Positions 33,165 to 63,389 of a stretch of 64,000 nt of DNA are shown one piece after another (the stretch's first letter is position 1; the number at the start of each line of letters is the position of its first letter). This DNA is from an uncultured virus (IMG/VR IMGVR_UViG_3300042274_000333) (taxonomy: Duplodnaviria > Heunggongvirae > Uroviricota > Caudoviricetes), in IMG/VR virus record IMGVR_UViG_3300042274_000333. One strand, written 5' to 3'. Position numbers and translations under genes: made by a program. The notes beneath the pieces are model-generated. The model saw nothing but the letters and a program-made list of their open reading frames with translations. It had not been told where the DNA came from and did not search any database.

Positions 33165-36100
33165 GTGTTTGAATTTAAACAGGATATTTCAAGGGAGATA
33201 TTTTTTAGAAAATATGCTCTTCACGGAGAAAAAACAGTAGAAGAAATCTTAAAAGGAGTAGCAGAAGAAATAGCGTCTGTAGAACCGGATGATAATTTAA
33301 AAAACATTTGGCAAGAGTATTTCTATCAAGCTATGATTTCTGGTAAATTTATCCCAGCGGGAAGAATATTGGCAAATGCTAGACCTTATTCCAGAATGAA
33401 AAACTACAACAACTGTTTTACTATTGATTTAGAGGATTCAATGCCTGGCATTTATGGGCCAGTAAGCGAAGATGCTATCATCGGTCAAATGGGTGGAGGT
33501 GTTGGATTTAACGCTTCAAAACTTCGTCCTAAAGGCGCATTGATTAGCAAAGGCGGAGAAAGTTCTGGCGTTATGAGTTTTATAGAGGTATTTGATACTT
33601 CTGCTAAAGCTATACATACAGGAGGTGGTCGTAGAGGGGCGCACATTTGTATCCTTAATGTAGACCATCCAGATATTGAAGAATTTATTGAATATAAGAA
33701 AGGAAGAGAGAATAATAAACTTACTCAATTTAATATTTCAGTAGGTATTACTGATGAGTTTATGAGAGCAGTTGAAAATGATGAAGACTGGGATTTGGTA
33801 TTCCCTCTTATGAAATTTGAAAGCGAAGAAAATTGTAAAACAAAATGGGTTAAAAACAACTTTGATTTACAATATTGTATAGACCAAGGATATACTGTTG
33901 ACGACACAGATCTTATTTTAGTAAAGGTGTATAAAACTGTAAGAGCAAAAGATTTGTATGAAAGAATGACTAAACAGGCTTGGTGGTATAATGAGCCAGG
34001 TGCTTTGTTCCTTGATACAGTGGAAGCAGGAAACAATGCTTCTCACGCTTTTAAGGTAGATAGATGCAATCCTTGTGGTAAATAATCTTGCCTCAAGTAA
34101 AAAACAGGGTGAACTGCTGGAAAGCTAAATTCTTGAAAAAGAATATGCTAATCAGCATCCAAGGTAGAGTAGGAATACTCTGCAAGGTTCAGAGACTAGG
34201 AAACGATACCAGAACGGTAGGTAATTTTCCCACGAGCGCCCTGCCCCATATTATGGGTGAAGATATAGTCCGACACTCCGGTGAAAATCGGAGAGTTAAG
34301 ATAAAGAGCTTAACAATAACTGATGGAAATCGTAATGCCTTCTTATTCTCTTTGCTGTCTATCTTCTATCAATCTTTCTAAATTGGTAAAAAATCAATTT
34401 ACAGAGAATGCAGAATTTGATTGGGAAGAATTTAAAAACATGGCAAGACTTGGAGTAAGGTTCTTGGATAATGTCTTGGATGCTACTGATTATCCTCTTG
34501 AAAAAATTGAGAAAATATCAAAAGCATGGAGAAGGATTGGTCTTGGAATTACAGGACTTGGCGATGCTTTGTTGAAATTAAAGATTAGATATGGAAGTAA
34601 AGAAAGTGTAGATTTTGTATATGAAATGGGAAATGTCCTAGCAGAAAGTGCGTATAATGCTTCTGTTGATTTAGCATTACAAAAAGGCTCGTTTCCTGCT
34701 TATGATAGTCATATTGGGCATTCTGGATTTATTACAAGGTTAAGTGAAGGAACACAGAAAAGAATTCAAGAAGTCGGGTTAAGAAACATTGGTATATTAA
34801 CCACGGCACCAACCGGATGTCTTGTTCCAGAAAGTATTGTATCAACTAACGATGGTTTATACACATTGGAAGAATTAATTCCTAATTATAAAAACTATGA
34901 AGATGGAACTTGGATACCACAAGAAAATCTTGGAGCATTAAACGAATATGAAAAGTACGAAGGAATAAGGAATACTTTTATAAATGGATTTAAACCTACT
35001 AAAAAAATATCTACAAAGAGTGGTGTAAATTTAGAAGGAACTCCAAATCATAAGTTTAAAGTGTTAAATGGAACTTCGTTTGACTGGAAGAAACTTGAAG
35101 ACCTATCTGTTGGAGATAATATAGTTTATAAAATTGGAGGATATGAAAAGAAAGATAATAAACGGCTTATACTTCCAGATTATGCAAAACACCCTAATGA
35201 AAAAGATATAAGATTACCGGAAGAGATTACCGCTGAATTTGCTTTCTTTTTAGGACTTTATAATGCAGATGGTAGCACTCACAACAAAGGCATAAGAATT
35301 AACTTAAATCATTTAACAAATGAATCAATAGAAGTTGTTGAACTGATTAAGAATTTATTTAATTGGAATTCTAAAGTTGTTGATAATGGTAAAAATTGTG
35401 ACAGTGTGTATATTTCTTCTCAAAGATTACTTAACTTTTTAGAAATTAATGGATTAATAAAAAATAAAGCATTAGGAATAGAAATTCCAAAAGCAGTAAG
35501 ATTATCTTCTAAAGAAAGTATCCTTTCTTATATTGATGGATATTTTTATGGTGATGGTTCAAGCAGCAGAGGGACAATGTATATTGATACTTATTCCGAA
35601 AAAAATGCTCAACAATTAGCTATTATAATGAGAGCAGTAGGTATTAATTCATCTATTTCAGTTTATGATAAATCTCTTGATGAAGGTAGCTATTCAAACA
35701 ATTTATCTTACAGGATTTATTGGAAAAAATATGGCTCTATCGGAGAAGAGAGAGCAAAGAGATATATTAAAAAAGATTTAAAAGAGAAAGTAGATTATCT
35801 TAATGATTATTTTGGAAAGGGATTGTTTATTGATGAAGTTGTTGCTATAAGCGATAGTAATAATTACACTTTAGACTTGGAAGTTCCAGACGGAAGAACT
35901 TATATTGCAAATTCATATGTTAGTCATAACACCACTTCTTTGTCTTTGGGAAATAACTGTTCTTCTGGTATTGAGCCTATTTTCTCTTTGCAGTATGATA
36001 GGTCTATAAGACAGGATGATGATACCACAAAAACACAAACTGTATATGATGATGGATGGCTGGAATACATAGAGTACGCAGGATACAAAGAAGGAAATGA

Positions 36101-36917
36101 TCTTCCTGATTATGTAGTGGTATCCCATAATGTATCTATTACAGAAGGAATAGATATACAGGCAGCACTTCAATACTGGATAGACCACAGTATCAGTAAA
36201 ACCATTAACATGCCTTTTGAAACTACACTAGAGCAATATAAAGATATATTCATGTATTCCTGGAAAAAGGGATTGAAGGGAGTTACTTCTTTTCATGAAG
36301 GTGCTTCTATGGATGGTATTCTTTCTACAAAGAAAGATGATGGATGGAGAAATATTGAGGTATTGAAAAATGCTATGAAACGTCCAGAAAGCTTGCCTTG
36401 CGATATCTATGATATTACAGTTAATAAAGAACCTGTTATTGTCCTAGTTGGTAAAAATCCAGATTCACCTTACAATAACGCACCATATGAAATCTTCTAT
36501 ACAGATAATCATGATGATATAGTTGATTTAAAGAGATTTAAAGAAGGTAGTATTGTTAAGGTATATGATGGTGCTGAAAAAGCCAGTAGATATGATTTGC
36601 TTATTGAAGGCAAGCGAAGTAAGATAGTAGTAGAAAATTTAGCAGAGGTGTTTAATGATGATTATGCTTCTATGTGTAGATTGCTTTCTTTATTGATGAG
36701 GCATCAAGTTCCATTGGAGTTTATTGTCGCACAGATGAATAAAGTAAAGAAGTTTGGGACGTTCCAAAAAGCCATTGCGAGGGTATTGAAGTATTATATA
36801 CCTGATGGAGAAATGATTTCTTCTAATAAAGCAGAATGCCCTGAATGTGGTGGAACTATGGTTTTTGAGGGTGGCTGTACGGTTTGTAGCAGTTGTGGAT
36901 ATTCTACTTGCGGTTGA
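33165..36917 (+). CDS. nrdJ: Class II (B12) ribonucleotide reductase; join(33165..34079,34326..36917); contains intein
   Basis: PAGRIL, NCF, GGGVG, RRGA, FNISV, EPG, NPCG|EI after splicing, RRIGLG, APTG|T, SSGIEP, SKTIN, C-terminal CPEC..CGYSTCG. Confidence 0.93.
34080..34325 (+). mobile_element. Group I intron, 246 nt, no HEG
   Basis: Exon ends in U (TGTGGT), intron ends in G; IGS GCCTCA; P GAACTGCTGGAA, Q AATCAGCA, R TTCAGAGACTA, S AAGATATAGTCC; removal restores NPCGEI. Confidence 0.93.
34818..35930 (+). mobile_element. Intein with LAGLIDADG endonuclease (371 aa)
   Basis: CLVPES.. start, TPNH block B, LGLYNADGS and IDGYFYGDGS, ends VSHN followed by Thr. Confidence 0.93.
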
Positions 36918-38642: not shown

Positions 38643-39218
38643 AAATTTTTTCTAAAATTTATAAAAAAAGCAAAAAATTTCTAAAAAATACCTATATCGG
38701 TGTCGCACTACCACCACAAAAAAAGTGCCTCAAAACCCCTATTATATAGGGGTTTTGCCTATTTAAATCCCCTCTAACTTTTGTATATACCCTAATAAAC
38801 ATTATAAATAACTCTATATATTATAAGGATTTACGAAAATTTTTTACCCGCTTGACAAGAAACTAAAAAAATGCTATAATGATATATCGCGTGGGCGTGC
38901 GCCCGCACGCACGCCCGCCTGTTTTCCTTATAAGAAAATACGTGCGAGGGGCTTGACAAGAAACTAAAAAAATGATAAAATAATGGTATGAAGCGGTCAA
39001 CGCCTTGCAAGGAAAACACTTGCAAGGGGCTTGACAAGAAACTAAAAAAATAGTATTTTAAGCGTGTCGTTTCCGCTTGCCAAGCAAGGCAAGAGGGGCT
39101 TGACAAGAAACTAAAAAAATGGTATTTTGAGCGAGTCAATCGTTAGTCGGTTCTGCCGATTAGGGGCTTGACAAGAAACTAAAAAAATGCTATAATGATG
39201 GCATGACAAGGGGGCTGT

Positions 39219-39563
39219 ATGACTGACTATGGTTTACTGGAACAAGTTAAGGCTGGAGAATATCGTAATGAGCCACTAGGGGTACACGTATGTCCTACTG
39301 GAAAAAAGAGTTATGCTAGGGTAAAACCTGATTATAGAGTAAAGGCGTATGGTGTCCCTGTGACAAATGCGGAAGAATTGTGTCCTGTGGGAAGTATTGC
39401 GTGCTATCATACCAAAGGCGGGAAAGGTGTGCTTATTCCTTGCAAGGTAGAGGAATACCGACACGACAAGGGGAAAGCTGTAATCAGTATAGAAAACGGG
39501 CGTTCTGTGCGTGTTGTATCACAAGACTTTATCCGCCCTTTGTCCCTCTTGACAAGAAACTAA
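39219..39563 (+). CDS. Early hypothetical protein
   Basis: Promoter cassette; stop lies inside next promoter. Confidence 0.65.
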   Translation: MTDYGLLEQVKAGEYRNEPLGVHVCPTGKKSYARVKPDYRVKAYGVPVTNAEELCPVGSIACYHTKGGKGVLIPCKVEEYRHDKGKAVISIENGRSVRVVSQDFIRPLSLLTRN

Positions 39564-39581
39564 AAAAATGGTATCCTACAT

Positions 39582-39636
39582 AAGCCGAAACCGCTTTCGG
39601 GCGGTCTGCCAGTGATACTGGTACTGACGATGGCTA
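39582..39636 (+). ncRNA. Hammerhead ribozyme, type II
   Basis: AGCC-GAAA-CCGC/GCGG-UC^-UGCCAGU/ACUGGUA-CUGACGA-U-GGCU; cleavage after 39606. Confidence 0.88.
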
Positions 39637-39729
39637 AGTAGGGGTGGTGTATCCAAATGGTGGAAACATTACCTACTTGACAAGAAACTAAAAAAATGCT
39701 ACAATGATGGCATGAAGCGAGGTTCTTGA

Positions 39730-39816
39730 ATGGAAGTATGGGAAAGTATTGTGTCTGTTGAGTTTGACGATTTTGACGATTTTGACGACTATTTCTTTGA
39801 TGATGACGAATTTTAG
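39730..39816 (+). CDS. 28-aa acidic micropeptide
   Basis: GAGG RBS, own promoter; MEVWESIVSVEFDDFDDFDDYFFDDDEF. Confidence 0.55.
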   Translation: MEVWESIVSVEFDDFDDFDDYFFDDDEF

Positions 39817-39855
39817 GGGCTTGACAAGAAACTAAAAAAATGGTAAGGTGCTAGT

Positions 39856-39948
39856 ATGACATTTGAAGAAATAATAGACTTGTATATTAGTTTAGGGTAT
39901 CCGTATGAACTAGCGGAAAGTATTGCCCTTGCCGAGTTCGGCAGATAG
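39856..39948 (+). CDS. 30-aa micropeptide
   Basis: AAGGTG RBS; fills a promoter cassette. Confidence 0.5.
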   Translation: MTFEEIIDLYISLGYPYELAESIALAEFGR

Positions 39949-40003
39949 GGGCTTGACAAGAAACTAAAAAAATGCTATAATGATGGCATGACAAGGGGGC
40001 TGT

Positions 40004-40381
40004 ATGGCTTACATGAACCAAGAACGAAAAAAGGTATTAGTGGAAAATGTCAAAAAAGTGCTTGCGGAACAATTTCCAGATGTGAAGATTAAGGCAACAT
40101 ATAGCGTTCGCAATAGAAGTAGCATTGTTATGACAATACAGGAATGTTCTTTGAATCTTCTTGAAGATATGCCAAATAGGGATAGGCACGACGTGAATGT
40201 ATATCATATTGATAGTCATTTTACGGGTAGAAACGCTGAACTATTACAGGCTTGCCGAAATGCTATGATGGTTGGCAATCATGACAACTCTAATGTTATG
40301 GTAGATTATTTTGACGTGGGGTGGTATGTAGATATTCATATCGGGAAATGGGACAAACCTTTTAAAGTAATAGGGGCTTGA
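40004..40381 (+). CDS. Early phage protein (DNS..M.DYFDVGWY motif)
   Basis: Promoter cassette. Confidence 0.75.
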   Translation: MAYMNQERKKVLVENVKKVLAEQFPDVKIKATYSVRNRSSIVMTIQECSLNLLEDMPNRDRHDVNVYHIDSHFTGRNAELLQACRNAMMVGNHDNSNVMVDYFDVGWYVDIHIGKWDKPFKVIGA

Positions 40382-40428
40382 CAAGAAACTAAAAAAATGC
40401 TACAATGATGGCATGACAAGGGGGCTGT

Positions 40429-40599
40429 ATGAATCAAGAGGCAATCAATTCTGCAAAGTGGGAATCGTTTATGAAAGTAATAGAAGTGATACGACCGTTT
40501 GATGTTGCGGGTAAGTTTGAAGCAATCTATAATGCAATAGACCAAATAAACGAGGACACGGAAAATTTTCTGGAAAAAATGGGCATTGTAGCATCTTGA
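40429..40599 (+). CDS. 56-aa early protein
   Basis: Same leader/RBS as 39219 and 40004. Confidence 0.65.
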   Translation: MNQEAINSAKWESFMKVIEVIRPFDVAGKFEAIYNAIDQINEDTENFLEKMGIVAS

Positions 40600-40754
40600 C
40601 AAGGAACTAAAAAAATGGTACAGTTAGGTATATGGTTGTTGTGGTTAGTAGGTGTATTTGCTATTCTTATGGCAATATGGGTCATTTTATGTTTTAAACA
40701 TCTTGGATAGGGGCTTGACAAGAAACTAAAAAAATGCTATAATAAAGAGGCGTT

Positions 40755-41126
40755 ATGACAAGAAAAGAAAAAAGATTTTTTGATAAAGAACTAAACAAAC
40801 TAGCGCACGAAGTGATAGATATATGTATAGCGTGTAGAAAAGAAGGGGTAAAAACTTCCGTATTTGAAGCTAATACTGTCTTTAAATCGTGGGCTAAGAT
40901 AGAGATAGGCAATCTTCTGTTGAGAATAAACGTGAAGGATAGTTATTATCTTTATTATAAAGATGTCTGTTTTGAGGATTATGAAAATATGGCTAATGTT
41001 TTAAGGATTGTATGGAATATCTTTAGCAAAGAAAAGGAAAGGCTTTTACCACTTCTTAATACGCACAAGAACAATAGAATGAGAGAATTTGAAGCTGAAT
41101 TTTCTGCCTACTTGACAAGAAACTAA
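40755..41126 (+). CDS. Early hypothetical protein
   Basis: Promoter cassette. Confidence 0.65.
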   Translation: MTRKEKRFFDKELNKLAHEVIDICIACRKEGVKTSVFEANTVFKSWAKIEIGNLLLRINVKDSYYLYYKDVCFEDYENMANVLRIVWNIFSKEKERLLPLLNTHKNNRMREFEAEFSAYLTRN

Positions 41127-41162
41127 AAAAATGCTATGATGATGGTATGAAAGGATGAAACA

Positions 41163-41522
41163 ATGGATACTAAAAAAATATCTGCTGATGAATATTGGTT
41201 AAAAAATGGTTATGCTATTGTAAAGTTGTCAAGAAAAGACCATAACAAACTTTTGCCTACTAGAATAAAGATTTTTAAGAATGGAAGATATTTTCTAAAA
41301 GAAACGGAAGAAAAAAGATTTGCGTATTATACGAAAGTTAATATATTAGGTAAACTTTTTGCTACTATTGCTTTACCAATTGCAATCATAATAGGGGGTG
41401 TAATAAACATAAAAGAGATATGGCAGGGTTATTTAAGCGTTCTAAATGGGGGTTATAGTGGTTTTAGGAGAATAGATAATATCCATTTGATAGACCTACT
41501 TGACAAGAAACTAAAAAAATGA
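41163..41522 (+). CDS. Early membrane protein
   Basis: Promoter cassette, one TM segment. Confidence 0.65.
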   Translation: MDTKKISADEYWLKNGYAIVKLSRKDHNKLLPTRIKIFKNGRYFLKETEEKRFAYYTKVNILGKLFATIALPIAIIIGGVINIKEIWQGYLSVLNGGYSGFRRIDNIHLIDLLDKKLKK

Positions 41523-41557
41523 TATAATGAGGTATCACAAAAGAAAAGAGGTAAAAA

Positions 41558-41815
41558 ATGGATAAAATTTATGGTCTTTGTTTTGATACTGGTTATATTT
41601 CACCTTCAAGTTTTTGTTTCTTCAAGTGTAAGAACAAAACAGAAACAAGAAAAGCAGGGAATTTATACAGAAAACAGTGGAATGTAGAACCAAAAATTTA
41701 CGCTATAGTTGAAATACCTGCTCATTTAGTGGAAGATGATTTTGAAAAAGCAAGAGAATTTGCCAGTGAAACAGTTAGGAATAGTCCTAAATATAAGTTA
41801 GAATATGGTTTTTGA
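41558..41815 (+). CDS. Early hypothetical protein
   Basis: Promoter cassette. Confidence 0.65.
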   Translation: MDKIYGLCFDTGYISPSSFCFFKCKNKTETRKAGNLYRKQWNVEPKIYAIVEIPAHLVEDDFEKAREFASETVRNSPKYKLEYGF

Positions 41816-41919
41816 GGTCTATTGACAAAAAACTAAAAAAATGATATAATGAGGATGTAAAATGGAAATTTCACAATTCTTGGCTGGTTCCCCATCCCAC
41901 CAGCACCGGAGGAAAAGAT

Positions 41920-42186
41920 ATGAGATTGAAAGAAAAAGACGGTGTGGAATCTTGTGGAGTATGCGGTAAGTATCCCTATATAGGAAAGAGAACATACAGA
42001 GTTGAGATACCTAAAAAGGAAAGATGTTGTCCTATAAATGAATATGATACATATGAAGGTTATGAAATATACTGTTGTAATTCTTGGCATAAGGTCTGTA
42101 AACAAGGGAAAACTTTAGAAGATGCTAAAAGAAAATGGAATGATATTTGGATAAAATCAATACCAGAAGGTATGGTGGGGGCTTGA
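41920..42186 (+). CDS. Cys-rich early protein (Lar-like Zn pattern)
   Basis: GGAGG RBS; CGVCG..YCC..AKRKWN. Confidence 0.6.
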   Translation: MRLKEKDGVESCGVCGKYPYIGKRTYRVEIPKKERCCPINEYDTYEGYEIYCCNSWHKVCKQGKTLEDAKRKWNDIWIKSIPEGMVGA

Positions 42187-42222
42187 CAAAAAACTAAAAA
42201 AATGATATAATGAGGATGTAAA

Positions 42223-42504
42223 ATGGAAAGATGGAAAAGTAATTTGATGGTGCTGGTTCTTTTTATTCCTAATGTTTTGTTAAAAGCATTTGTAATAACT
42301 AAAATATATGTTATGTTTGCCTTGAATGAAGTTTTCAAAGTAGATATAACAATGGCACATTGGATTGGCATTTCTTTTGTGTTAGGTTTGTTATATTCAA
42401 AAAAAAATACAAGCGAAACTCCAGCAGAGGATATGATTGCTTCTTGTATTGCGTTTCTTATGACTTGGGGATTTTCTGCTCTTATCAAGCTGATTATTGG
42501 ATAG
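42223..42504 (+). CDS. Early membrane protein
   Basis: Three hydrophobic segments. Confidence 0.65.
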   Translation: MERWKSNLMVLVLFIPNVLLKAFVITKIYVMFALNEVFKVDITMAHWIGISFVLGLLYSKKNTSETPAEDMIASCIAFLMTWGFSALIKLIIG

Positions 42505-42544
42505 GGGCTTGACAAGAAACTAAAAAAATGCTATAATAGGATAT

Positions 42545-42598
42545 AAGCCGAAACCGCTTTCGGGCGGTCTACCAGTGATGCTGGTACTGATGAGGCTA
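42545..42598 (+). ncRNA. Hammerhead ribozyme, type II (second copy)
   Basis: AGCC-GAAA-CCGC/GCGG-UC^-UACCAGU/GCUGGUA-CUGAUGA-GGCU; cleavage after 42569. Confidence 0.92.
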
Positions 42599-42791
42599 AA
42601 TCAGATTTATGGAATAGGTTTAGTTTTTAGATAGTAGCGTTGCCTACTTGACAAAAAACTAAAAAAATGCTATGATAAGTTAACGAAAAGCGGAAACGCT
42701 GAATGAAAAAACAAGTAGCGTTGCCTACTTGACAAAAAACTAAAAAAATGATACAATAGGGTATCAAACGAAACGTAAAGGAGAACGTAAA

Positions 42792-43136
42792 ATGAGAGAA
42801 GATGTTAAGAATGTATTGTCTGGTCTGTCTTATGACGAGCTGTTGGAAGTTGGCACTTTGCTGACTGATTTGAAGAAAGGTGCAAGAGCTGATGCCAAGG
42901 CTGAAGCTACTGCAACTCAAGAGGCTACTGTGGCTAGAGTGAATGGGCTTATCGCTTCCGGTTCTTTGAAGTTGGGTTCGGAAATTCTTGTTTCTTACAA
43001 GAATAAGGTGGTTAACGCTACCGTCAAGACCGTTCCAACCGAAAAGGCAAAGAACCTTCGGTTGTATTCCGAGTCTTTTGATGGGGAAACTCACGAAAGG
43101 TATGCGGATAAGTTCCGGTTCGTGGACTTGGCGTAG
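42792..43136 (+). CDS. Early hypothetical protein
   Basis: Tandem promoters, AAGGAG RBS, GC hairpin 43149-43166 downstream. Confidence 0.8.
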   Translation: MREDVKNVLSGLSYDELLEVGTLLTDLKKGARADAKAEATATQEATVARVNGLIASGSLKLGSEILVSYKNKVVNATVKTVPTEKAKNLRLYSESFDGETHERYADKFRFVDLA

Positions 43137-43201
43137 AGTCGGATGTCGGAGGGGCTTTTGCCCCTCTTGACAAGAAACTAAAAATATAATATCCTTGTTA
43201 A

Positions 43202-43945
43202 AGCAAGGTTGCACACCACTCCCATTCTGGGGATGGAAACATTATCCTACCTGTGTTCTTCCATTGTCTGGTGTGTAGTAGGTGATTAGGTGCGGTGGTT
43301 TTCTAGGATGTAAAACCGTTTTCTGTAAAATAACGGAAAAAAAGTCTACTATAGTAGATACCACTGTGAAGCTGTTATAAAGGTTTTTGCTTTTTTCCCT
43401 TAATAAACAAGACAGGATAGGTTTTGCTTGTTACCTACTAGAAAAAACAAATGAGTAGGTTTTTGCCCGTTTTACTGAACAAACGTATCCTAGGCAAGGT
43501 GTCGCATGTTTTTTAGTTATGGTTTTTGTAGACAGAAATAAAATAAACTGTGGCTAGTGGGAGATTCACTTAAACTTTTCTCACCTCAACTTATCAAGGT
43601 TAATGGATAGGTAGTTATATATCGCTATTGATATATCGCAGAATGAGCGTCAGATTTTCCGTATTCAAAGTGTCGTAATACTTTGTGGGATATAGTGTTA
43701 GCCTGGGAAAATAAGTTTGCTATACCCTTAATACTGAAAAACATTAGAAGTCCAAGGCAGGCAGTTTACATATTTAAGCGTGAAATATGTCGTTTCTAGA
43801 TAACGTTATATCTAAATCTTTTAGATTTTTGCAAGTTCTGGATAATAGAAAATGTAGCTAAAATGTAAGACAAATTTAGCTATATTAGTTCGGTGTATGG
43901 TGTAGTCCTTGATGTGTCTTTAGAGCATACGCACAGTGTAGCCAA
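43202..43945 (+). ncRNA. Candidate large structured ncRNA (~740 nt)
   Basis: Promoter-bounded, ORF-less, >10 helices, complementary ends. Confidence 0.65.
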
Positions 43946-50518: not shown

Positions 50519-51685
50519 ATGATAGAGTTAAAAGGAAAGTATGAAAACGCAATAATCTATAATGATTTTGCAGAAGAAGGAGCAATATCACAAATAATCT
50601 CTTTATTGAATCAGCCTATGGCAAAAGACGCACATGTAAGGGTAATGCCTGACGTTCACGCAGGCGCTGGGTGCGTAATAGGGTATACTGCAAAACTTAC
50701 TGATAAGGTTGTGCCTAACTTGATAGGAGTAGATATTGGATGTGGAGTTTTGGCTGTTCGTCTGTCAAAGAAATTTGATTTAGACGACATAGAGAAATTT
50801 ACAAAAGAAAATATTCCTACTGGTTCTAGTGTTAGAGATAAAGATGCAAGAAAATTTGACAAAGATTTTCACGAAAGGGTTTTGAAAGTTTGCCGTGAAA
50901 CAGGACAGGGTTTTCATAGGGTTATGAAATCTTTAGGCACTCTTGGTGGTGGAAATCACTTCATTGAAATAGATGAAGATAATGAAGGTAAATTTTGGCT
51001 TTTAGCTCATACTGGTTCAAGAAATTTTGGCAAAAAAATAGCAGAATTTCATCAGGATATGGCAAAGAGTATAAACTACAGAAAAAATGATATTGACACT
51101 TTGAAGCAGAAATATACAGGCGAAGAATTGCGACTTGCTATAGAAGCATTGCCTAAAACTACTAGCGGTCTAGAATGGCTTGAAGGTGATAATTTTTCAA
51201 AGTATTTAGAGCATATGATGGTAGCACAGGAATATGCTTCTATAAATAGAAATATTATTATAGAAGATATATCAGAAAAGTATGGTTATGATAATATAGT
51301 TGAGTCTGTACATAACTATATTGACTTGAAAAATGGTATAATCCGCAAAGGGGCTATCTCTGCTCAAAAAGGAGAGAAAGTTATAATACCTCTTTCAATG
51401 AAAGATGGTGCTATCATAGGCACTGGAAAAGGAAATGAAGAATGGAATTTTTCTGCTCCTCATGGTGCTGGTAGAAAAATGTCAAGAAGTGAAGCAAAGA
51501 AAACGCTTTCTATGGAAGAGTTTGAAGAGCAGATGAAAGGTATTAAATCCTCTTGTATAGGTTTAAGCACTCTTGACGAATCACCTATGGCTTATAAAGA
51601 CCCAGAAGAAATTATAAGGTACTTGGAGCCATCTGTTGAAATTGTAAGAACTTTAAAACCTATATGGAACTTTAAAGCTACTTGA
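50519..51685 (+). CDS. rtcB: RtcB-family RNA ligase
   Basis: MPDVHAG, GVDIGCG, GTLGGGNHFIE, HTGSR, HN, RKGA, SAPHGAGR, DESPMAYK. Confidence 0.96.
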   Translation: MIELKGKYENAIIYNDFAEEGAISQIISLLNQPMAKDAHVRVMPDVHAGAGCVIGYTAKLTDKVVPNLIGVDIGCGVLAVRLSKKFDLDDIEKFTKENIPTGSSVRDKDARKFDKDFHERVLKVCRETGQGFHRVMKSLGTLGGGNHFIEIDEDNEGKFWLLAHTGSRNFGKKIAEFHQDMAKSINYRKNDIDTLKQKYTGEELRLAIEALPKTTSGLEWLEGDNFSKYLEHMMVAQEYASINRNIIIEDISEKYGYDNIVESVHNYIDLKNGIIRKGAISAQKGEKVIIPLSMKDGAIIGTGKGNEEWNFSAPHGAGRKMSRSEAKKTLSMEEFEEQMKGIKSSCIGLSTLDESPMAYKDPEEIIRYLEPSVEIVRTLKPIWNFKAT

Positions 51686-53554: not shown

Positions 53555-53626
53555 GCCTTCCTAGTATAATGGTCATTACAAGACTGTGGTATGGTTTAGA
53601 TAGCGGTTCGATTCCGCTGGAAGGCT
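53555..53626 (+). tRNA. tRNA-Thr(GGT)
   Basis: GCCTTCC/GGAAGGC; AGACT-GTGGTAT-GGTTT; TTCGATT. Confidence 0.75.
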
Positions 53627-53630
53627 TAAT

Positions 53631-53715
53631 GGATAGTTGGCAGAGTGGTCTATTGCACTTGTCTAGAAAACAAGAGGATGTAAAAGTTCCAGAGGTTCAA
53701 ATCCTCTACTATCCG
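53631..53715 (+). tRNA. tRNA-Ser(AGA)
   Basis: CTTGT-CTAGAAA-ACAAG; long variable arm; G73. Confidence 0.9.
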
Positions 53716-53741
53716 TATTAAATTGTAAAGGAGAACGTAAA

Positions 53742-54602
53742 ATGAGCCATTTTGTTGTATTAGCTTTTGGTGAAAATGTTGATAGAATGCTTGAACCGTA
53801 TTATGAAGGCATTGAAGTAGATGAATATTATGTCGGTGATGTTTCAGAAGAAGAAAAAGACGATTTTATAGAATACTATAAAGAACATCTTGAAAAAGAA
53901 GGGCGTCCTTTTCAAAGCGGATTAAGTAAAGAAGAAGAAATGGAAACTCTTTATAAAGAGTTTGGCATGGATTGGAATAGAGATAGCTGGAGAGTAGAAG
54001 GCGGAATATGGTGCAAGTATTCTACTTATAACCCTCTTTCAAAATGGGACTGGTATACTATTGGGGGAAGATTTGAAGATTTCTTTAAGCTAAAACCAGA
54101 TGCCTATACTAAACCAGTATTAACTATTTCAGATATTGATTTCTTTGGCAAAGCAGAGGAAAATAAAAAGAAAGCAGAGGAAGATTGGGAAAACGTTAAT
54201 AAAGTTTTTAACGAGGCAAATACTGGAAACTTTAAATCTTGGAAAGAAATTTTAGAAATGGAAAATCTTACCATAGATAAACAGAGAGTATTATACCATA
54301 AACAGCCAGAAGTAGAGGCTTACATGAAATATCTTGAAGAAGATAGCTACATGGCTTTCTATGAAAAACTTGAAGATTATTTAGTCAGCAAAGAAGAGTT
54401 TGTTGATGCAAGAATTTATGGTGGAGTTGTTCCTTATGCTTATGTAAGTGAAAAAACTGGTTGGAGAGAAAAGGGAGAAATGGGTTGGTTTGGAATGTCT
54501 AATGACAAATATTCTGATAAAGAATGGTTCAAAGAGTTTATGGAGTTTATAACTTCTTTGCCATTAGATACGCCAGTTTCAATAGTAGATTGCCATATTT
54601 AA
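53742..54602 (+). CDS. Phage hypothetical protein (YNP.SKWDWY.IGGR; VDCHI)
   Basis: Long ORF, AAGGAG RBS. Confidence 0.8.
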   Translation: MSHFVVLAFGENVDRMLEPYYEGIEVDEYYVGDVSEEEKDDFIEYYKEHLEKEGRPFQSGLSKEEEMETLYKEFGMDWNRDSWRVEGGIWCKYSTYNPLSKWDWYTIGGRFEDFFKLKPDAYTKPVLTISDIDFFGKAEENKKKAEEDWENVNKVFNEANTGNFKSWKEILEMENLTIDKQRVLYHKQPEVEAYMKYLEEDSYMAFYEKLEDYLVSKEEFVDARIYGGVVPYAYVSEKTGWREKGEMGWFGMSNDKYSDKEWFKEFMEFITSLPLDTPVSIVDCHI

Positions 54603-54613
54603 TATGGCACAAT

Positions 54614-54701
54614 GGAAGCGCAACCCGATAGCTGGCGACGGGAACTGTCTTGAAAACAGCCGAGCGTAACTGCCTTGTGGGTTCGACCCCCACCGCTTCC
54701 G
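54614..54701 (+). tRNA. tRNA-Ser(TGA)
   Basis: GGAAGCG/CGCTTCC; loop CTTGAAA; long variable arm. Confidence 0.88.
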
Positions 54702-54720
54702 TAAAAAAGGATACGTAAAA

Positions 54721-55098
54721 ATGGTTAAACAAGTGATTGTAGTAAGAAAAGACTTAAACATGAGAAAAGGGAAAATTGGAGCACAATGCGCCCACGCTTC
54801 TATGAAGGTGTTTTTTGATATAGCAAAAGTAAAAAACAATGTAATGGAAATTCCCTTGAACGATGAAATGGATGAATGGTTTAATGGTATTTTTACTAAA
54901 ATTGTAGTATATGTAGAAAGTGAAGAAGAATTGCTTTCTGTATATGATGAAGCAAAAAAAGCAGGGTTGCCTTGTTCTTTGATTAAAGACAATGGGCTTA
55001 CAGAATTTAATGGAGTTCATACTTATACCTGTGTAGGTATCGGTCCTGCCGAAGCAAGCAAGATAGATGCCATAACAGGACACTTAAGATTATATTGA
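54721..55098 (+). CDS. pth2: Peptidyl-tRNA hydrolase type 2
   Basis: KQVIVVRKDL.M.KGK..AQCAHAS, TKIVV, DNGLTEF, GIGP. Confidence 0.93.
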   Translation: MVKQVIVVRKDLNMRKGKIGAQCAHASMKVFFDIAKVKNNVMEIPLNDEMDEWFNGIFTKIVVYVESEEELLSVYDEAKKAGLPCSLIKDNGLTEFNGVHTYTCVGIGPAEASKIDAITGHLRLY

Positions 55099-55314
55099 CA
55101 AAAAACTAAAAAATTGATATAATAAGAGAGTAAGGTGGGAAAATGAAAGAACATGAAGTTGCGTTGAGAATTTCCGATGAAAAGTATGTAGATTCTTTAA
55201 TCATTGCCTTGGTTCGTCAGGGATATGAAGTATATTATAATAGTGAAGAAGGTAAAGGGCTTGTATGTTTTAAAACATATGATGAAGAAGTAACAGAAAT
55301 TAAGAGATAACAAT

Positions 55315-55386
55315 GGTCGCTTAGTCTAGTGGTAAGGACATGAGGTTTTCATCCTCAAATCAGGGGTTCAATTCCCCTAGCGACTA
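55315..55386 (+). tRNA. tRNA-Glu(TTC)
   Basis: TGAGG-TTTTCAT-CCTCA. Confidence 0.92.
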
Positions 55387-55391
55387 ACAAT

Positions 55392-55463
55392 GGTCTATTC
55401 GTCTAATGGTAGGACGTGAGGTTTTCATCCTTAAGATGGCGGGTTCAATTCCCCTATAGACTA
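55392..55463 (+). tRNA. tRNA-Glu(TTC), second divergent copy
   Basis: TGAGG-TTTTCAT-CCTTA. Confidence 0.85.
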
Positions 55464-55479
55464 TAAAAAAGGAGTTTGT

Positions 55480-55635
55480 ATGGAACTACCAGATGTAAAG
55501 AAACATTATATTGTTTCTATGGTTAAAAGTGTATTAAGGATAGCAGGGTATTTATTTCTGTTTAAAGTGGCACCAGTGGCTTCTGTAATTTTGATAGTAT
55601 CAGAAATTTTAGGAGTGTTAGAAGAAAACGTATAA
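55480..55635 (+). CDS. Small membrane protein
   Basis: AAGGAG RBS, 51 aa. Confidence 0.55.
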   Translation: MELPDVKKHYIVSMVKSVLRIAGYLFLFKVAPVASVILIVSEILGVLEENV

Positions 55636-55640
55636 CATAT

Positions 55641-55724
55641 GCTCTGGTGGTGGAATAGGTAGACACAACAGGCTTAAAACCTGTTGCCCGTTAGGGCGTG
55701 AGGGTTCAAGTCCCTCCCAGAGTA
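55641..55724 (+). tRNA. tRNA-Leu(TAA)
   Basis: ACAGG-CTTAAAA-CCTGT; variable arm. Confidence 0.93.
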
Positions 55725-55739
55725 AAGTGGGGTTTTATC

Positions 55740-56099
55740 TTGAAAAATGATGGTCTTTTTATTGCTGGTGTTTTAACTGTAATTTTTTTGTTATTATCAT
55801 TTACTTTCAGTTATAATAAAAATGATGAATATGATTTACGTAAAAATATAAACAATAATATAGTAGAAAATATTAAAACCAGTTTAAATGCATCAATAAA
55901 AAATGAATTAAAATTAAGTGATTGCTATGTTCAAAATGTAAAAATATCAGAAGAATCAAACGTTTATACAGCAGTTGTCACAATTAAACATTTTTTAAGA
56001 AAGAAAAATACAATTGTAATATATGTTAAAAAAAATGATAGAGATGAAGCATATTATTATCCAGGAGAAATAAAAGACTGGTATTACAAATTAGATTGA
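55740..56099 (+). CDS. Membrane-anchored hypothetical protein
   Basis: TTG start after tRNA; N-terminal TM. Confidence 0.55.
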   Translation: MKNDGLFIAGVLTVIFLLLSFTFSYNKNDEYDLRKNINNNIVENIKTSLNASIKNELKLSDCYVQNVKISEESNVYTAVVTIKHFLRKKNTIVIYVKKNDRDEAYYYPGEIKDWYYKLD

Positions 56100-56103
56100 A
56101 AAC

Positions 56104-56185
56104 GCTCCTGTGTTGGAATTGGTATACATCAGTGTCTTAGAAACATTGGCCGAGAGGATTGGGAGTTCAACTCTCCCCAGGAGCA
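56104..56185 (+). tRNA. tRNA-Leu(TAG)
   Basis: AGTGT-CTTAGAA-ACATT. Confidence 0.9.
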
Positions 56186-56233
56186 TTACTTTTATATATT
56201 GGTAAAGATATTAATATAAAAGGATTATTACCT

Positions 56234-56707
56234 ATGCCAAAAACAAAATATACAAAAGAGATTTTAAAACCAATAGTAGAAAAAAATATCAGTATTGCTG
56301 GTGTGTTAAAAGATCTTAACTTAAAAAATACTGGTGGAAATTATTCACATATAAAAAAATGTATTAAAAATGCAGAAATAAGTATGGATCATTTTTTAGG
56401 TCAATCTCACAGCAAGGGAAAACAAGGATATAATAAGCATACAAAAGAATCATTTATTGAAAAAGTTTTAAAGGAAGGAACTGGTTGGAGAAATCAAGCA
56501 ATAAAAGAAAAACTATTAGAATTCAATTTAAAAGAAGATAAATGTGAAGTTTGTGGTCAAAGTAGCTTATGGAATGGAAAAAAATTATCATTACAAATAG
56601 ACCATATTAATGGAATATTTAATGACAATAGATTTGAAAATTTGAGAATAATATGTCCTAACTGTCATTCTCAAACCGATACTTTTAGTTCTAAAATTAG
56701 GAACTAG
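56234..56707 (+). CDS. HNH endonuclease
   Basis: CEVCG..LQIDHING..NDNR.ENL..ICPNCHSQT. Confidence 0.92.
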   Translation: MPKTKYTKEILKPIVEKNISIAGVLKDLNLKNTGGNYSHIKKCIKNAEISMDHFLGQSHSKGKQGYNKHTKESFIEKVLKEGTGWRNQAIKEKLLEFNLKEDKCEVCGQSSLWNGKKLSLQIDHINGIFNDNRFENLRIICPNCHSQTDTFSSKIRN

Positions 56708-56745
56708 TGCCGTAAGGAGTGAGGGTTCAAGTCCCTCCCAGAGTA
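56697..56745 (+). pseudogene. Orphan 3' half of tRNA-Leu (T-TAG-GA-ACTAG...CCAGAGT-A)
   Basis: Anticodon through acceptor 3' strand present, 5' half absent. Confidence 0.75.
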
Positions 56746-56748
56746 AAT

Positions 56749-56832
56749 GCTTCAGTGGTGTAATATTGGTAAACACGCTAGTTTAAGGAACTAGTGCCGT
56801 AAGGCGTGAGAGTTCAAATCTCTCCTGGAGCA
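56749..56832 (+). tRNA. tRNA-Leu(AAG)
   Basis: CTAGT-TTAAGGA-ACTAG. Confidence 0.9.
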
Positions 56833-57024
56833 AAAATTAGTTAAGTGATGTCAGGAAGAGCCTTTAAATACAACAGTTAAAGGAAATGCCAGAAAAGCAC
56901 ACCTTTTAAGGACGTCCGTGCAGAGGTTTGAATCCTACTCTTGATATTAAGTCATTTAACAAATTTTATAGAATGAGGATAAAAATAATTACGTAATAAA
57001 ATATCCAAGTTCTATATATTTTAT

Positions 57025-57108
57025 GCTTCAGTGGTGTAATATTGGTAAACACGCTAGTTTAAGGAACTAGTGCCTTCGGGTGTGAGGGTTCAAATCCCTC
57101 TTGAAGCA
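57025..57108 (+). tRNA. tRNA-Leu(AAG), second copy
   Basis: 5' part identical to 56749 copy; varied V/T arms. Confidence 0.9.
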
Positions 57109-57114
57109 AATAAT

Positions 57115-57196
57115 GTTTCGGTGGTGGAAACGGTAGACACGGTAGCCTCAAAAGCTATTGCCGCAAGGCGTGAGGGTTCAAGTCCCTCTCGGAGCA
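57115..57196 (+). tRNA. tRNA-Leu(CAA)
   Basis: GTAGC-CTCAAAA-GCTAT. Confidence 0.92.
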
Positions 57197-57260
57197 AAAA
57201 ATAATTGTTTAAAAATTAAAAAAATTCTATAATAAAGTATAGTCAATAAGGAGATTTTAA

Positions 57261-57587
57261 ATGATTATTAAAATGGGAAGTCCAGATAATTTTGTACATG
57301 CTTTTTTTAAAAACGAAATGTATAATGAAGATTATCCATTGGATTTTGGCGTATATTTTTCAAAAGAAAAGCCTATTAGTTCAAATGATGATACTTGTTT
57401 AGAGTATGAGTTTGATACAGAAAAAGATTATATTCTAACATCTACTGATGCATCTATAATCTGGATTTGGAAGGATAAAAAGCCGACTATGATAGCAGAT
57501 TATGGATATTTTTGGGAAAAAGGAACTGCTATTGATTTTGAAGCTAAGGAAACTGGGTTTTATGTAGTTTGTGGCGAAAAATATTAA
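57261..57587 (+). CDS. Hypothetical protein
   Basis: AAGGAG RBS. Confidence 0.7.
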   Translation: MIIKMGSPDNFVHAFFKNEMYNEDYPLDFGVYFSKEKPISSNDDTCLEYEFDTEKDYILTSTDASIIWIWKDKKPTMIADYGYFWEKGTAIDFEAKETGFYVVCGEKY

Positions 57588-57605
57588 ACAAATGGAGGTA
57601 GCAAA

Positions 57606-58157
57606 ATGAAATTAGAAGAAATTCTTGAAAGCATAGAACAAAAAGCCAAAGATTTTGCTACCGAAAAACACAAAGGGCAAAAAAGAAAATTTGAAGGAGT
57701 CCCTTATGTGGAGCATCCTAAAAGAGTTGCTGAAATTGTAAGAAAATACAAAGACAGTCACAAAATTGATGAACTTATTTCTTCTGCTTTACTTCATGAT
57801 ACTATTGAAGATACAAATACTACAGAAGAAGATTTAGAGAAATTGTTTGGTGGTTTAGTGGCTTCTTTAGTAAAAGAACTTACCTCTGATGGAGAAGAAA
57901 TAAAGAAGAAAGGCAAAGAGACGTATCTTTCTGATAAAATGATTGGTATGTCTGATTGGGCTTTAGTTATAAAACTAGCAGACAGACTTGACAACGTAAG
58001 TGATTTAGAAGTGGCTGATAAATATTTTAGAGATAGATACATTAGAGAAACAGTATTTATCCTTAATAAACTTGAATCAGGAAGAAAACTTTCAGGCACG
58101 CAACAAAAGCTGGTTGATGTTATTAGGGGTAAGATAAAAGAGTTGACAAAAAACTAA
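57606..58157 (+). CDS. HD-domain small alarmone hydrolase-like (Mesh1/SpoT HD)
   Basis: H.GQ.RK..PY..HP, ALLHDTIEDT, LV.ELT.D, IKLADRLDN. Confidence 0.9.
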   Translation: MKLEEILESIEQKAKDFATEKHKGQKRKFEGVPYVEHPKRVAEIVRKYKDSHKIDELISSALLHDTIEDTNTTEEDLEKLFGGLVASLVKELTSDGEEIKKKGKETYLSDKMIGMSDWALVIKLADRLDNVSDLEVADKYFRDRYIRETVFILNKLESGRKLSGTQQKLVDVIRGKIKELTKN

Positions 58158-58288
58158 AAAAATTGTATAATAAAAGAGTAAGATGGGGAAGCGTTAGGAT
58201 AACACTTATGAGGGGACTGACCGAGTAACGTTCAGGTTTAAGTAGATGACAAGTCCTGCTAACGCTTTCCGATTAAAATAAAAAATAT

Positions 58289-58360
58289 GGTGGTATGGTA
58301 TAATGGCTATTACGGGAGATTGTCGATCTCCAAATCGGGGTTCAATTCCCCGTATCATCG
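58289..58360 (+). tRNA. tRNA-Asp(GTC)
   Basis: GGAGA-TTGTCGA-TCTCC. Confidence 0.9.
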
Positions 58361-58365
58361 GAAAC

Positions 58366-58447
58366 GCCTTCTTAATCCTCTAAAGACGAGGGGCAGACTG
58401 TAAATCTGTTGCAACACGCTGGGTGGGTGCGATACCCACAGAGGGCA
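58366..58447 (+). tRNA. tRNA-Tyr(GTA), atypical D/T loops
   Basis: GCAGA-CTGTAAA-TCTGT; T-loop TGCGATA. Confidence 0.75.
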
Positions 58448-58588
58448 AATGTCTCGGATAGCAAAAGACGTAAAACAAACCCGCTAGTGACACACCGGAA
58501 TGCGAAGACGGTGCGTAAGACCGACTCGTTGCAACGAGGGATTATATGTATCGGTATAATACAGGTTGAATTCCGACCTGTATATTAT

Positions 58589-58660
58589 GGTCAGGTAGCA
58601 AATCGGTTTTGCAACACACTTTTAATGTGTCCCAGGTGGGTTCAACTCCCACCCTGATCA
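58589..58660 (+). tRNA. tRNA-Lys(TTT)
   Basis: ACACA-CTTTTAA-TGTGT. Confidence 0.88.
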
Positions 58661-58663
58661 AAT

Positions 58664-58749
58664 GGAGTAGAGAAGCATAGGGGATATGCGCTTGCCTGCT
58701 AAGCAAGAGGTTATCATAGATGGCAGAGGGTCGGAACCTCCTTACTCCG
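58664..58749 (+). tRNA. tRNA-Ser(GCT), atypical T loop
   Basis: CTTGC-CTGCTAA-GCAAG; long variable arm; G73. Confidence 0.75.
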
Positions 58750-58921
58750 TAAATATCATTTTGATTTGTTAGTTGGTTTATGGGACTATACGAGAGACCG
58801 ACTATATGTGGCTGAAATAGTCTTCAGCGTAGTAAGCAGATCTTACTCATTTCAAAAATGATATAAATTTCAGTGTGTAACTTGATTTGAAAATACTTGC
58901 TTTTCAAATCATATATATATT

Positions 58922-59338
58922 ATGGAAAAAACACAATGCTTAAAATGCGGGGAATGGAAGAGCGTAGAAGATTTTTCAAAAAATAAAAGAAAAAGAGGCT
59001 ATCACAATTGGTGTAAATCTTGTGTTAAAGAATATGACCACGCTAGATATAAAGAAAATAAAGAAAAAATATCTAAACAAAAAAAAGACCGCAGAAAGTC
59101 AATAAAAGAATGGTTTTTTGACTATAAAAGTTTTTTAAAATGTGAGATTTGTGGAGAAAGCCATATAGCAACATTAGACTTTCATCATTTGGATAAAACT
59201 TCAAAAGATTTTAATGTTAGTAATGCAGCTAAGCAAGGGTTTAGCAAAAGAAGAATTCTTGAAGAAACGAATAAATGCATAATTCTGTGTGCAAATTGCC
59301 ATAGAAAATTGCATTATGAAGAAAACAACTCTCAGTAG
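58922..59338 (+). CDS. HNH endonuclease with N-terminal Zn ribbon
   Basis: CLKC..CKSC; CEICG..LDFHH..LCANCHRKLH. Confidence 0.9.
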   Translation: MEKTQCLKCGEWKSVEDFSKNKRKRGYHNWCKSCVKEYDHARYKENKEKISKQKKDRRKSIKEWFFDYKSFLKCEICGESHIATLDFHHLDKTSKDFNVSNAAKQGFSKRRILEETNKCIILCANCHRKLHYEENNSQ

Positions 59339-59402
59339 GTCAGTGGTAGACCGCCTGTTTTGGGAACAGGAGATTTCGCAGGTTCGAATCCTGTCTGGGA
59401 GA
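59329..59402 (+). tRNA. tRNA-Pro(TGG)
   Basis: CTCTCAG/CTGGGAG; CCTGT-TTTGGGA-ACAGG. Confidence 0.92.
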
Positions 59403-59469
59403 TATAAGTTAGCAAACTATTGACGTATCAAGTCGGTAGAAATTCTAGAATTTTTGCTAACTTTTCAAT

Positions 59470-59541
59470 GACTTCGTAGCTCAACGGTAGAGCATCTGGC
59501 TGTTAACCAGAGGGTTGGGGGTTCAAGTCCCTCCGTTGTCG
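59470..59541 (+). tRNA. tRNA-Asn(GTT)
   Basis: TCTGG-CTGTTAA-CCAGA; two U.U pairs in acceptor. Confidence 0.88.
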
Positions 59542-59575
59542 TATTGTAGTTTAAATAAAAAAAGAAGGTATAAAA

Positions 59576-60838: not shown

Positions 60839-60883
60839 TTTATTATTCATGTATAGTAATTGATTTTACTATACATGATATAT

Positions 60884-60919
60884 GGGTGCTTGGTGTAATG
60901 GTAACATAAGAGTCTCCAA
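60884..60919 (+). pseudogene. 5' half of split tRNA-Trp(CCA)
   Basis: GGGTGCT acceptor, D arm, AGAGT-CT-CCA-A then interrupted. Confidence 0.8.
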
Positions 60920-60945
60920 CTGTAAAGATATATTTGGAGACTAAC

Positions 60946-61368: not shown

Positions 61369-61426
61369 ATGGTAAACTCTTTCGCTCCAAACGAAAGTTA
61401 TGTGAGTTCAAATCTTACCGCCATCG
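61354..61426 (+). tRNA. tRNA-Trp(CCA)
   Basis: GGTGGCG/CGCCATC; TTTCG-CTCCAAA-CGAAA; G73. Confidence 0.88.
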
Positions 61427-61435
61427 AATAAAGTT

Positions 61436-62209: not shown

Positions 62210-62210
62210 T

Positions 62211-63384: not shown

Positions 63385-63389
63385 AACTT

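Follow-up and report, generated by a model that had tools for sequence, protein, structure and literature searches.

What is a self-cleaving ribozyme for when it stands directly behind a promoter and no gene follows it? The question is raised by two hammerhead ribozymes, named here HH1 and HH2, in a 64,000-nucleotide (nt) sequence of an uncultured Caudoviricetes virus (IMGVR_UViG_3300042274_000333). This whole stretch is referred to as the window, and all coordinates are on its + strand. Hammerheads have been recognized in phages since 2011, and what they do there is still unsolved. A ribozyme that has no gene and occupies the very start of the RNA made from a textbook sigma-70-type promoter offers a clean natural test case that could separate three roles: a change of RNA ends (5′-triphosphate [5′-PPP] to 5′-hydroxyl [5′-OH], with hairpin caps), the cutting of read-through RNA, and the release of small RNA. 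In an earlier sequence-only reading of this DNA, the two sites were called type II hammerheads and were proposed to process the early transcript. In this study, we examined their identity, their placement, and the explanations that could account for them.

As summarized in Table 1, HH1 and HH2 lie on the same (+) strand, with 2963 nt between the two cleavage sites. In both copies, the elements are arranged from 5′ to 3′ as AGCC, GAAA, stem III with a UUCG loop, GUC followed by the cut, stem I with a GAU loop, CUGANGA, and GGCU. Stem II (AGCC/GGCU) has 4 base pairs (bp) and an open end, stem III has 6 bp, and stem I has 7 bp. The conserved hammerhead core (C3 U4 G5 A6 N7 G8 A9, G12 A13 A14, and the N-U-H triplet) is complete in both copies, and the core-flanking pairs A15.1-U16.1, N1.1-N2.1, and G10.1-C11.1 are all formed. 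When each site was folded in isolation, the minimum-energy structure was the hammerhead three-way junction, with stems I and III closed and stem II open. The complete cores noted in the sequence-only reading were thus confirmed, but each end of the spans it gave (39582-39636 and 42545-42598) was off by one base; the 5′-OH positions it named, 39607 and 42570, agree with the cut sites read here. Complementary runs between loop I and the 3′ tail are 5 nt (HH1) and 4 nt (HH2) long, lengths no commoner than in shuffled pairings within the subclass described below.

When Rfam was applied at its gathering thresholds, no hammerhead was listed in the window. The sequence-only reading had proposed a search with the type II model (Hammerhead_II, RF02276); in E-value mode this model found both sites, at 28.3 bits for HH1 and 32.4 bits for HH2, but neither score reached the gathering cut-off of 37. 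The corresponding E-values were 0.0091 and 0.0008 when 4.5 kb were searched and 0.13 and 0.011 over the whole window; no other ribozyme family was found in the window at E ≤1 in this mode. We attribute the low scores to loops and stems of very small size. A related locus, L005, has three hammerheads, of which two are also under the cut-off (33.8 and 32.1 bits); this implies that the Rfam cut-off under-calls this compact subclass. A descriptor composed of the hammerhead core and stems of at least 3, 4, and 4 bp matched the window at exactly two sites, HH1 and HH2. On 300 dinucleotide shuffles, the same descriptor gave a mean of 0.023 matches, with one match in 7/300 shuffles and two in 0/300.

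Relatives were collected by a pattern scan of IMG/VR in which stem II and the core were fixed and stems I and III were left free. The scan found at least 131 loci; the matches listed (loci L018-L148) numbered 144 and comprised 118 unique sequences. The members of this subclass share the AGCC/GGCU stem II and two closed hairpins, stem III being short and stem I 7 bp long, with UA before and AA after the ribozyme. In L005, three such ribozymes occur in a row between small genes, with stems I and II the same as in HH2 and stem III changed compensatorily. Covariation was assessed in 96 relatives 50-58 nt long, with the window sequences excluded. Paired cells amounted to 97.4%, compared with 71.3% in shuffles, and double-change cells to 347, compared with 95.3, a number reached by 0/500 shuffles. 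Partners slid out of register were paired in 31-44%, and double changes were seen at 10/12 pairs of stems I and III. A covariance model built from this set, R1, gave 64.2 bits for HH2 (E 7e-13) and 50.0 bits for HH1 (E 1e-9), with the runner-up site in the 64 kb at 9.2 bits. Aligned to R1, both copies show the same three stems as in the predicted folds. Taken together, the R1 scores and the covariation of the relatives indicate that HH1 and HH2 are genuine members of this compact phage subclass; with intact cores and the expected folds, their earlier assignment to type II was upheld. No near match to the window was found in GenBank phages, and a distant-mode BLAST of HH2 returned chance matches of 18-23 nt only.

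HH1 and HH2 differ by three substitutions and one inserted U. Within stem I, one substitution makes a G.U pair in HH1 and A-U in HH2, and another, at the loop end, makes U-A in HH1 and U.G in HH2; the third affects the free position N7, which is C in HH1 and U in HH2. All three keep the core and the pairing (chance 0.276 per substitution, p about 0.021). The sequence-only reading had held that the stem I differences preserve pairing, and pairing is indeed kept, but the changes are one-sided rather than double compensatory. The extra U lies between A9 and G10.1 of HH1 and is absent from HH2. An insert after A9 was found in 29 IMG/VR loci (U in 28/31 inserts); the same U insert is carried by L004 and by hammerheads of L001 and L003 with Rfam scores of 66.8 and 65.4 bits, and a related contig from run X10 has a T insert after 42593, at the HH2 position. 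The 5′ ~26 nt (TAAGCC...GGUCU) are the same in both copies, and all four differences fall in the 3′ part. Because the differences between the copies are of tolerated kinds, selection on function appears to be supported. The intact cores, the tolerated substitutions (3/3, p ~0.02), and the recurrent U insert likewise favor the earlier proposal of self-processing, which is drawn from sequence.

Both ribozymes are located in an array of short + strand cassettes that extends from 38.8 to 47 kb, each cassette headed by a promoter-like repeat, TTGACAARAAACTAAAAAAATG, and then a -10 box. With ≤3 mismatches, 32 copies of this repeat were found in the window, all on the + strand, where chance would give 0.04. 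Many of the array promoters are perfect TTGACA-17-TATAAT sequences with an extended TG; the motif had no occurrence in IMG/VR. From the -10 hexamer to the ribozyme start there are 6 nt (HH1) and 9 nt (HH2). With the usual spacing, the predicted start sites are about 39583-39584 and 42543-42545; they fall at, or ≤3 bases before, the 5′ strand of stem II, in agreement with the earlier statement that each ribozyme begins at about the point where transcription from a consensus promoter is predicted to start. The -35 box that comes next begins at 39677 for HH1 and at 42648 for HH2, which leaves gaps of 41 and 50 nt after the ribozymes, and these gaps contain no + strand open reading frame (ORF) of ≥20 amino acids; the short, ORF-free interval before the next promoter had also been read correctly. 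The interval from HH1 to HH2 brackets ten promoters and about ten small ORFs; when 17 proteins were scanned against Pfam, none of the 12 small ORFs that lie in 39219-43136 gave a match. Within 38700-43300, the + strand has terminator-like sites at 38891-38918 and 43057-43073 only, which makes read-through across both ribozymes plausible.

Table 1. Coordinates of the ribozymes, their promoters and flanking elements, and other features of the window.
Feature	Position	Strand	Details
HH1 promoter	39549-39577	+	-35 TTGACA 39549-39554; 17-nt spacer with TG; -10 TATCCT 39572-39577; 10/12
HH1, type II hammerhead	39583-39635	+	core CUGACGA; cut between C39606 and U39607
Hairpin after HH1	39642-39674	+	ends 3 nt before next -35 box; predicted fold
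HH2 promoter	42509-42537	+	TTGACA; 17-nt spacer with TG; TATAAT 42532-42537; 12/12
HH2, type II hammerhead	42546-42597	+	consensus core CUGAUGA; cut between C42569 and U42570
AU-rich hairpin CUAAAUC/GGUUUAG + UUUUU	42596-42628	+	weak-terminator-like; overlaps stem II 3′ strand
AUCAG after HH2	42600-42604	+	complementary to core CUGAU; possible post-cleavage hairpin
RtcB	50519-51685		Pfam PF01139 215 bits; phrog_1075 E 1.8e-127
19 tRNA genes	53555-63786
CCA-adding enzyme	59576-60838

The usual context of the subclass was determined from 152 unique relatives (131 + 29 loci, L018-L148 and L153-L181), and the counts in this and the next paragraph apply to the matches listed. A site resembling a ribosome-binding site (RBS), a start codon, and an ORF of ≥30 codons were present within 60 nt downstream in 121/152, compared with 6/152 for antisense flanks as a control, and the median distance from ribozyme to gene signal was 23 nt. 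A stop codon overlaps the first ribozyme bases in 78/152, and 69 of these 78 stop codons close a long ORF. A sigma-70-like site (≥10/12 matches) ending 2-15 nt upstream was seen in 1/124, a count to be read with the qualification that promoters may differ in phages that infect other hosts. The setting of HH1 and HH2 is therefore atypical for the subclass on two counts, in that there is no downstream gene and there is a consensus promoter.

The sequences 3′ of the ribozymes were also examined. The fold of 39583-39676 keeps the HH1 hammerhead and adds the downstream hairpin (-35.5 kcal/mol, z -2.81; matched by 1/200 shuffles), and the 3′ product of HH1 is predicted to fold at -22.4 kcal/mol (z -2.4). 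The HH2 3′ product gave -22 kcal/mol (z -2.8), equalled by 0/200 shuffles; a long alternative hairpin of this product was given no weight, as its partner sequence is not conserved in contig L007. The AU-rich hairpin after HH2 has <3 G-C pairs and was unflagged by the terminator scan, and the same stretch is kept with few changes in a related contig from an RNA run. Related-phage records in runs X7, X9, X10, and X24 are assembled contigs, uninformative on RNA starts, ends, or expression; because DNA can be present in an RNA library, a contig from an RNA run is no proof of transcription. The start of one RNA-run contig near 42594 was considered as an RNA 5′ end and rejected, as contig starts show no RNA ends. 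Record 7 of X10 spans 42550-42778 with 29 substitutions and 7 gaps, record 10 of X24 extends from about 42594 to 42800 with few changes, and L007 is syntenic from 42624 onward at 93% identity. The gene-less stretch 3′ of HH2 is thus kept in more distant relatives, which would weigh against simple decay. As to the tail itself, TCAG occurs in the 30-nt tail of 32/124 relatives, compared with 7/124 in the 30 nt upstream, and in 20/124 the base before UCAG matches N7 (AUCAG with CUGAU, GUCAG with CUGAC). This pattern hints that the UCAG tail may form a hairpin with the spent core strand after cleavage; no description of such a hairpin was found in the literature consulted.

Twelve metagenome contigs (L006-L017) related to the window were compared as well. 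Five of them (L007, L008, L011, L014, and L015) align with it over long stretches and L009 has four promoter copies; neither ribozyme is covered by any of the twelve. Matches in genome collections (L149-L152) were rejected as relatives, as each has a single promoter-like match and looks like chance.

We consider it moderately probable that HH1 and HH2 bring about constitutive self-cleavage of early transcripts, both locally started and read-through, and leave hairpin-capped ends. Every RNA crossing either hammerhead would cut itself during transcription. An RNA started locally, 0-3 nt upstream, would shed a piece of ~24-27 nt with a 5′-triphosphate and a 2′,3′-cyclic phosphate (>p), and the remaining RNA would have a 5′-OH end whose first nucleotide is already paired in the stem I hairpin. 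In a read-through RNA from upstream promoters, the new 3′ end would be the stem III UUCG hairpin followed by C>p. That both new ends would carry hairpin caps follows from the type II topology. RNA decay can depend on the 5′ and 3′ ends, and such caps might therefore stabilize the ends. After the cut, the two products would be connected solely by the 4-bp stem II, and for this reason they should separate and the cut should be effectively irreversible. As a net result, an array with almost no terminators would be split into three RNA segments, hairpin-capped at the boundaries 39606/39607 and 42569/42570. A two-bp stem II is common in natural hammerheads (PMC3088659), and thus a start at G39584 should still leave a working ribozyme. 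The purpose may be the removal of 5′-PPP or the insulation of cassettes, as the sequence-only reading had suggested.

Several observations weigh against this account or qualify it. Neither ribozyme reaches the curated Rfam cut-off. When HH2 was folded together with its downstream sequence, the minimum-energy structure was an alternative long hairpin and not the hammerhead. In a related contig from X10, the ribozyme is apparently 3 nt nearer the -10 box, as read from the alignment table. A locally started RNA of that contig might be missing the 5′ strand of stem II, and such spacing would speak for a role confined to read-through RNA. Many type II hammerheads are accelerated by a pseudoknot between loop I and the 3′ tail; for this subclass the sequence comparison gave it no support, with runs of ≥4 nt in 14.8% of members, compared with 13.9% of shuffled pairings. 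Given that the promoter repeat is present in every intergenic gap, any intergenic element must adjoin a promoter, and the position behind a promoter thus follows partly from the design of the array. Finally, ribozymes are found at only 2 of about 25 cassette junctions, which is sparse for "punctuation".

The array contains other gene-less units. At least five promoter-plus-hairpin units without a gene were seen, at 38852, 38953, 39031, 39100, and 42648; these five mini-cassettes (38852-39167 and 42648-42728) consist of 40-70 nt that fold into a hairpin between promoters. The first contains a GC-rich hairpin with a U-run, which is the scan-flagged terminator at 38891-38918. Pieces of the mini-cassette hairpins recur between promoters in contigs of X7, X9, X10, and X24. 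In the relatives' contigs, joints were seen at promoter repeats (39577->39816, 40363->41499, 41854->42178, and 42666->42725); either cassettes may be gained, lost, and reordered by recombination there, or assemblies break there. Behind another array promoter, P43167 (-10 TATCCT), in the region 43167-43260, a sequence resembling a CRISPR repeat was noted at 43208-43240, consisting of a short hairpin and then AUGGAAAC. It matches the Rfam family CRISPR-DR18 weakly (19.4 bits, E 7.5) and is kept in L007, where the changes preserve the hairpin. In RNA anti-CRISPRs, one solitary repeat follows closely behind a promoter (PMC10651486), and by this analogy the element is a candidate RNA anti-CRISPR. 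The ~770 nt behind P43167 (43196-43960) are without a convincing ORF; identity to L007 in this region is 93% over 42624-43346 and 96% over 43659-43763.

The rest of the window is phage-like and encodes a baseplate protein, a split ribonucleotide reductase, RtcB, a CCA-adding enzyme, and tRNAs; the elements belong to a large, tRNA-rich phage. RtcB joins ends of the kind that hammerheads make. The RtcB of the window is nearest to those of Herelleviridae phages of Bacillus and Listeria (~45% identity). Three cultured Herelleviridae with the closest RtcB were searched for subclass hammerheads and 0/3 matched, an empty outcome that is uninformative. Together, RtcB, the CCA-adding enzyme, and the 19 tRNA genes resemble a set of tools for tRNA repair. 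The large subunit of the ribonucleotide reductase is split into 33165-34085 and 34323-36917 (33165-36917 overall), and the second ORF has an endonuclease-like segment (phrog_4645, residues 300-462), which points to an inserted intein, intron, or homing endonuclease. A tRNA-Sec-like match at 54614-54700 (RF01852, 34.7 bits, cut-off 47, E 0.0042) was not called by ARAGORN.

Other explanations of the two cassettes were weighed against the same data. One is that they are leftovers, derived from gene-leader hammerheads (stop codon, hammerhead, RBS, gene) whose genes were deleted by recombination between promoter repeats. On this view, the ribozymes may still cut, but their position against a promoter and without a gene would serve no function in itself; we regard this explanation as unlikely. 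The downstream genes and overlapping stop codons of so many listed relatives are what such an origin would predict. Both window copies keep the family-typical TAAGCC start, and two X10 contigs continue past 42598 with GGAGGCAATCATGAC (GGAGG...ATG); from these two features we infer that the ancestor was probably an ordinary gene-leader hammerhead. The many joints of relatives at promoter repeats, which suggest that cassettes are shuffled there, and the weak -10 box at HH1 (TATCCT) would also fit. However, neither core is damaged and the copies differ only in tolerated ways, two more distant relatives retain the region 3′ of HH2, which is also syntenic in L007, and with five other gene-less promoter-plus-hairpin cassettes present, gene-less units seem to be regular here. 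It is rather improbable that the cassettes are stand-alone small-RNA units whose ends are set by the ribozyme. The small RNA could be the ~24-27-nt 5′-ppp/2′,3′>p hairpin fragment, of the same sequence from both cassettes, or the structured 5′-OH RNA after the cut, which in the case of HH2 would extend ~55-60 nt to the AU-rich hairpin and U-run. The first candidate draws on the ~26 nt that are unchanged between the copies, but 0 differences in 26 nt versus 4 in 27 is not significant; the second draws on the stable 3′ product folds and on the weak terminator-like hairpin with its U5, but this hairpin fails the scan criteria, and HH1 is without a U-run. The other gene-less promoter-plus-hairpin units, together with the promoter that precedes the CRISPR-repeat-like sequence, would suit such a role. 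An RNA-run contig with a depth of 97 lies over the stretch just after HH2, but contigs prove neither transcription nor ends. We know of no target or partner for such a small RNA.

A more speculative version, which we hold to be doubtful, treats the two cassettes as early units dedicated to making RNA with unusual ends and nothing else. Two strong promoters would then yield the same ~25-nt hairpin RNA, with a 5′-triphosphate and a 2′,3′-cyclic phosphate, together with 5′-OH hairpin-capped RNAs. These could occupy or mislead host enzymes or sensors of >p or 5′-OH ends, might be substrates of the phage RtcB, or might act as a natural "RiboJ" that places a standard nuclease-resistant 5′ end on read-through early messages. 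That the ribozymes act together with the phage RtcB, so that the 2963-nt RNA is circularized via a composite hammerhead or its ends are joined to other RNAs, is very unlikely. The window does encode RtcB, a composite ribozyme would form because stem II is the same in HH1 and HH2, and the authors of PMC3088659 considered that clustered prophage hammerheads might give circular or spliced products. Yet they looked for both kinds of product and report that neither was detected; the gene lies beside 19 tRNA genes and the CCA-adding enzyme, so that tRNA repair explains it; and with ten promoters inside the 2963-nt segment, most RNAs would be without a ribozyme-made 5′ end. RtcB was found in 0/5 multi-hammerhead IMG/VR phage contigs, 2/5 of which are ≥90% complete; such contigs may be fragments. 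The joint 42569->39607 was absent among the relatives' contig joints listed, which derive from contigs only and not from raw RNA reads. Least probable of all is that HH1 and HH2 are inactive look-alikes or chance matches. The sub-threshold Rfam scores of both sites and the insertion beside the HH1 core could be read in this way, but two descriptor matches never occurred in a shuffle, the R1 E-values are 1e-9 or lower, and the HH1-type insertion recurs as a natural variant. Self-cleavage of early transcripts is thus the reading that we prefer.

With regard to known systems, the abundance of type II hammerheads in prophages and phages, and their clusters flanking gene blocks, were described in 2011, and RNA processing was the role proposed for clustered prophage hammerheads (Perreault et al. 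2011, PMC3088659). HH1 and HH2 share with RF02276 the core (CUGANGA, GAAA, and GUC), the topology, and a short, open stem II. They share with the published type II hammerheads a location between small genes in phage DNA, and with the published clusters the presence of at least two same-strand hammerheads that bracket genes (PMC3088659). A pseudoknot between loop I and the 3′ tail is important for fast type II cleavage in the same source (PMC3088659). Unlike typical RF02276 members, the window copies score lower, a pseudoknot is not supported by the comparison within their subclass, they abut a promoter, and no gene comes after them. Compared with the AGCC/GGCU subclass in IMG/VR, the architecture and flanks are identical, whereas the habits of the subclass are reversed in the window: a gene downstream (121/152 listed) and the lack of a promoter upstream (found in 1/124 listed). 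The Rfam cut-off misses this compact subclass, which is common in phage metagenomes, with at least 131 IMG/VR loci that fit one strict pattern.

The original 2012 paper on RiboJ reportedly describes a synthetic insulator in which a hammerhead and a hairpin are placed between a promoter and an RBS. The likeness to the window would be a self-cleaving hammerhead directly after a promoter, giving a uniform 5′-OH transcript end; HH1 also has an extra hairpin after the ribozyme. The differences are that the window elements are natural, and that, with the type II topology, hardly any RNA remains upstream of the cut. A RiboJ-like insulator lies between a promoter and the RBS of the insulated gene; in the window the promoter is present, but there is no RBS or ORF before the next promoter. 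Ribozyme insulators of the RiboJ type are covered by PMC6206723 and PMC8383906. The closest natural parallel on the transcript side is HHphage of the haloviruses HF1/HF2, which heads an early polycistronic transcript with a mapped 5′ end ≤3 nt from the cleavage site (PMC3088659). Like HH1 and HH2, it is a hammerhead at the head of an early phage transcript. However, it is an archaeal-virus variant with core insertions, and a helicase gene follows it after 13 nt, so that it is not gene-less (PMC3088659). Within the literature searched, no paper was found that describes a natural hammerhead set directly against a promoter of bacterial type, or a gene-less phage promoter-hammerhead unit. The ribozymes of the window are ordinary members of a known family, and their promoter-abutting, gene-less setting is the unusual and new part.

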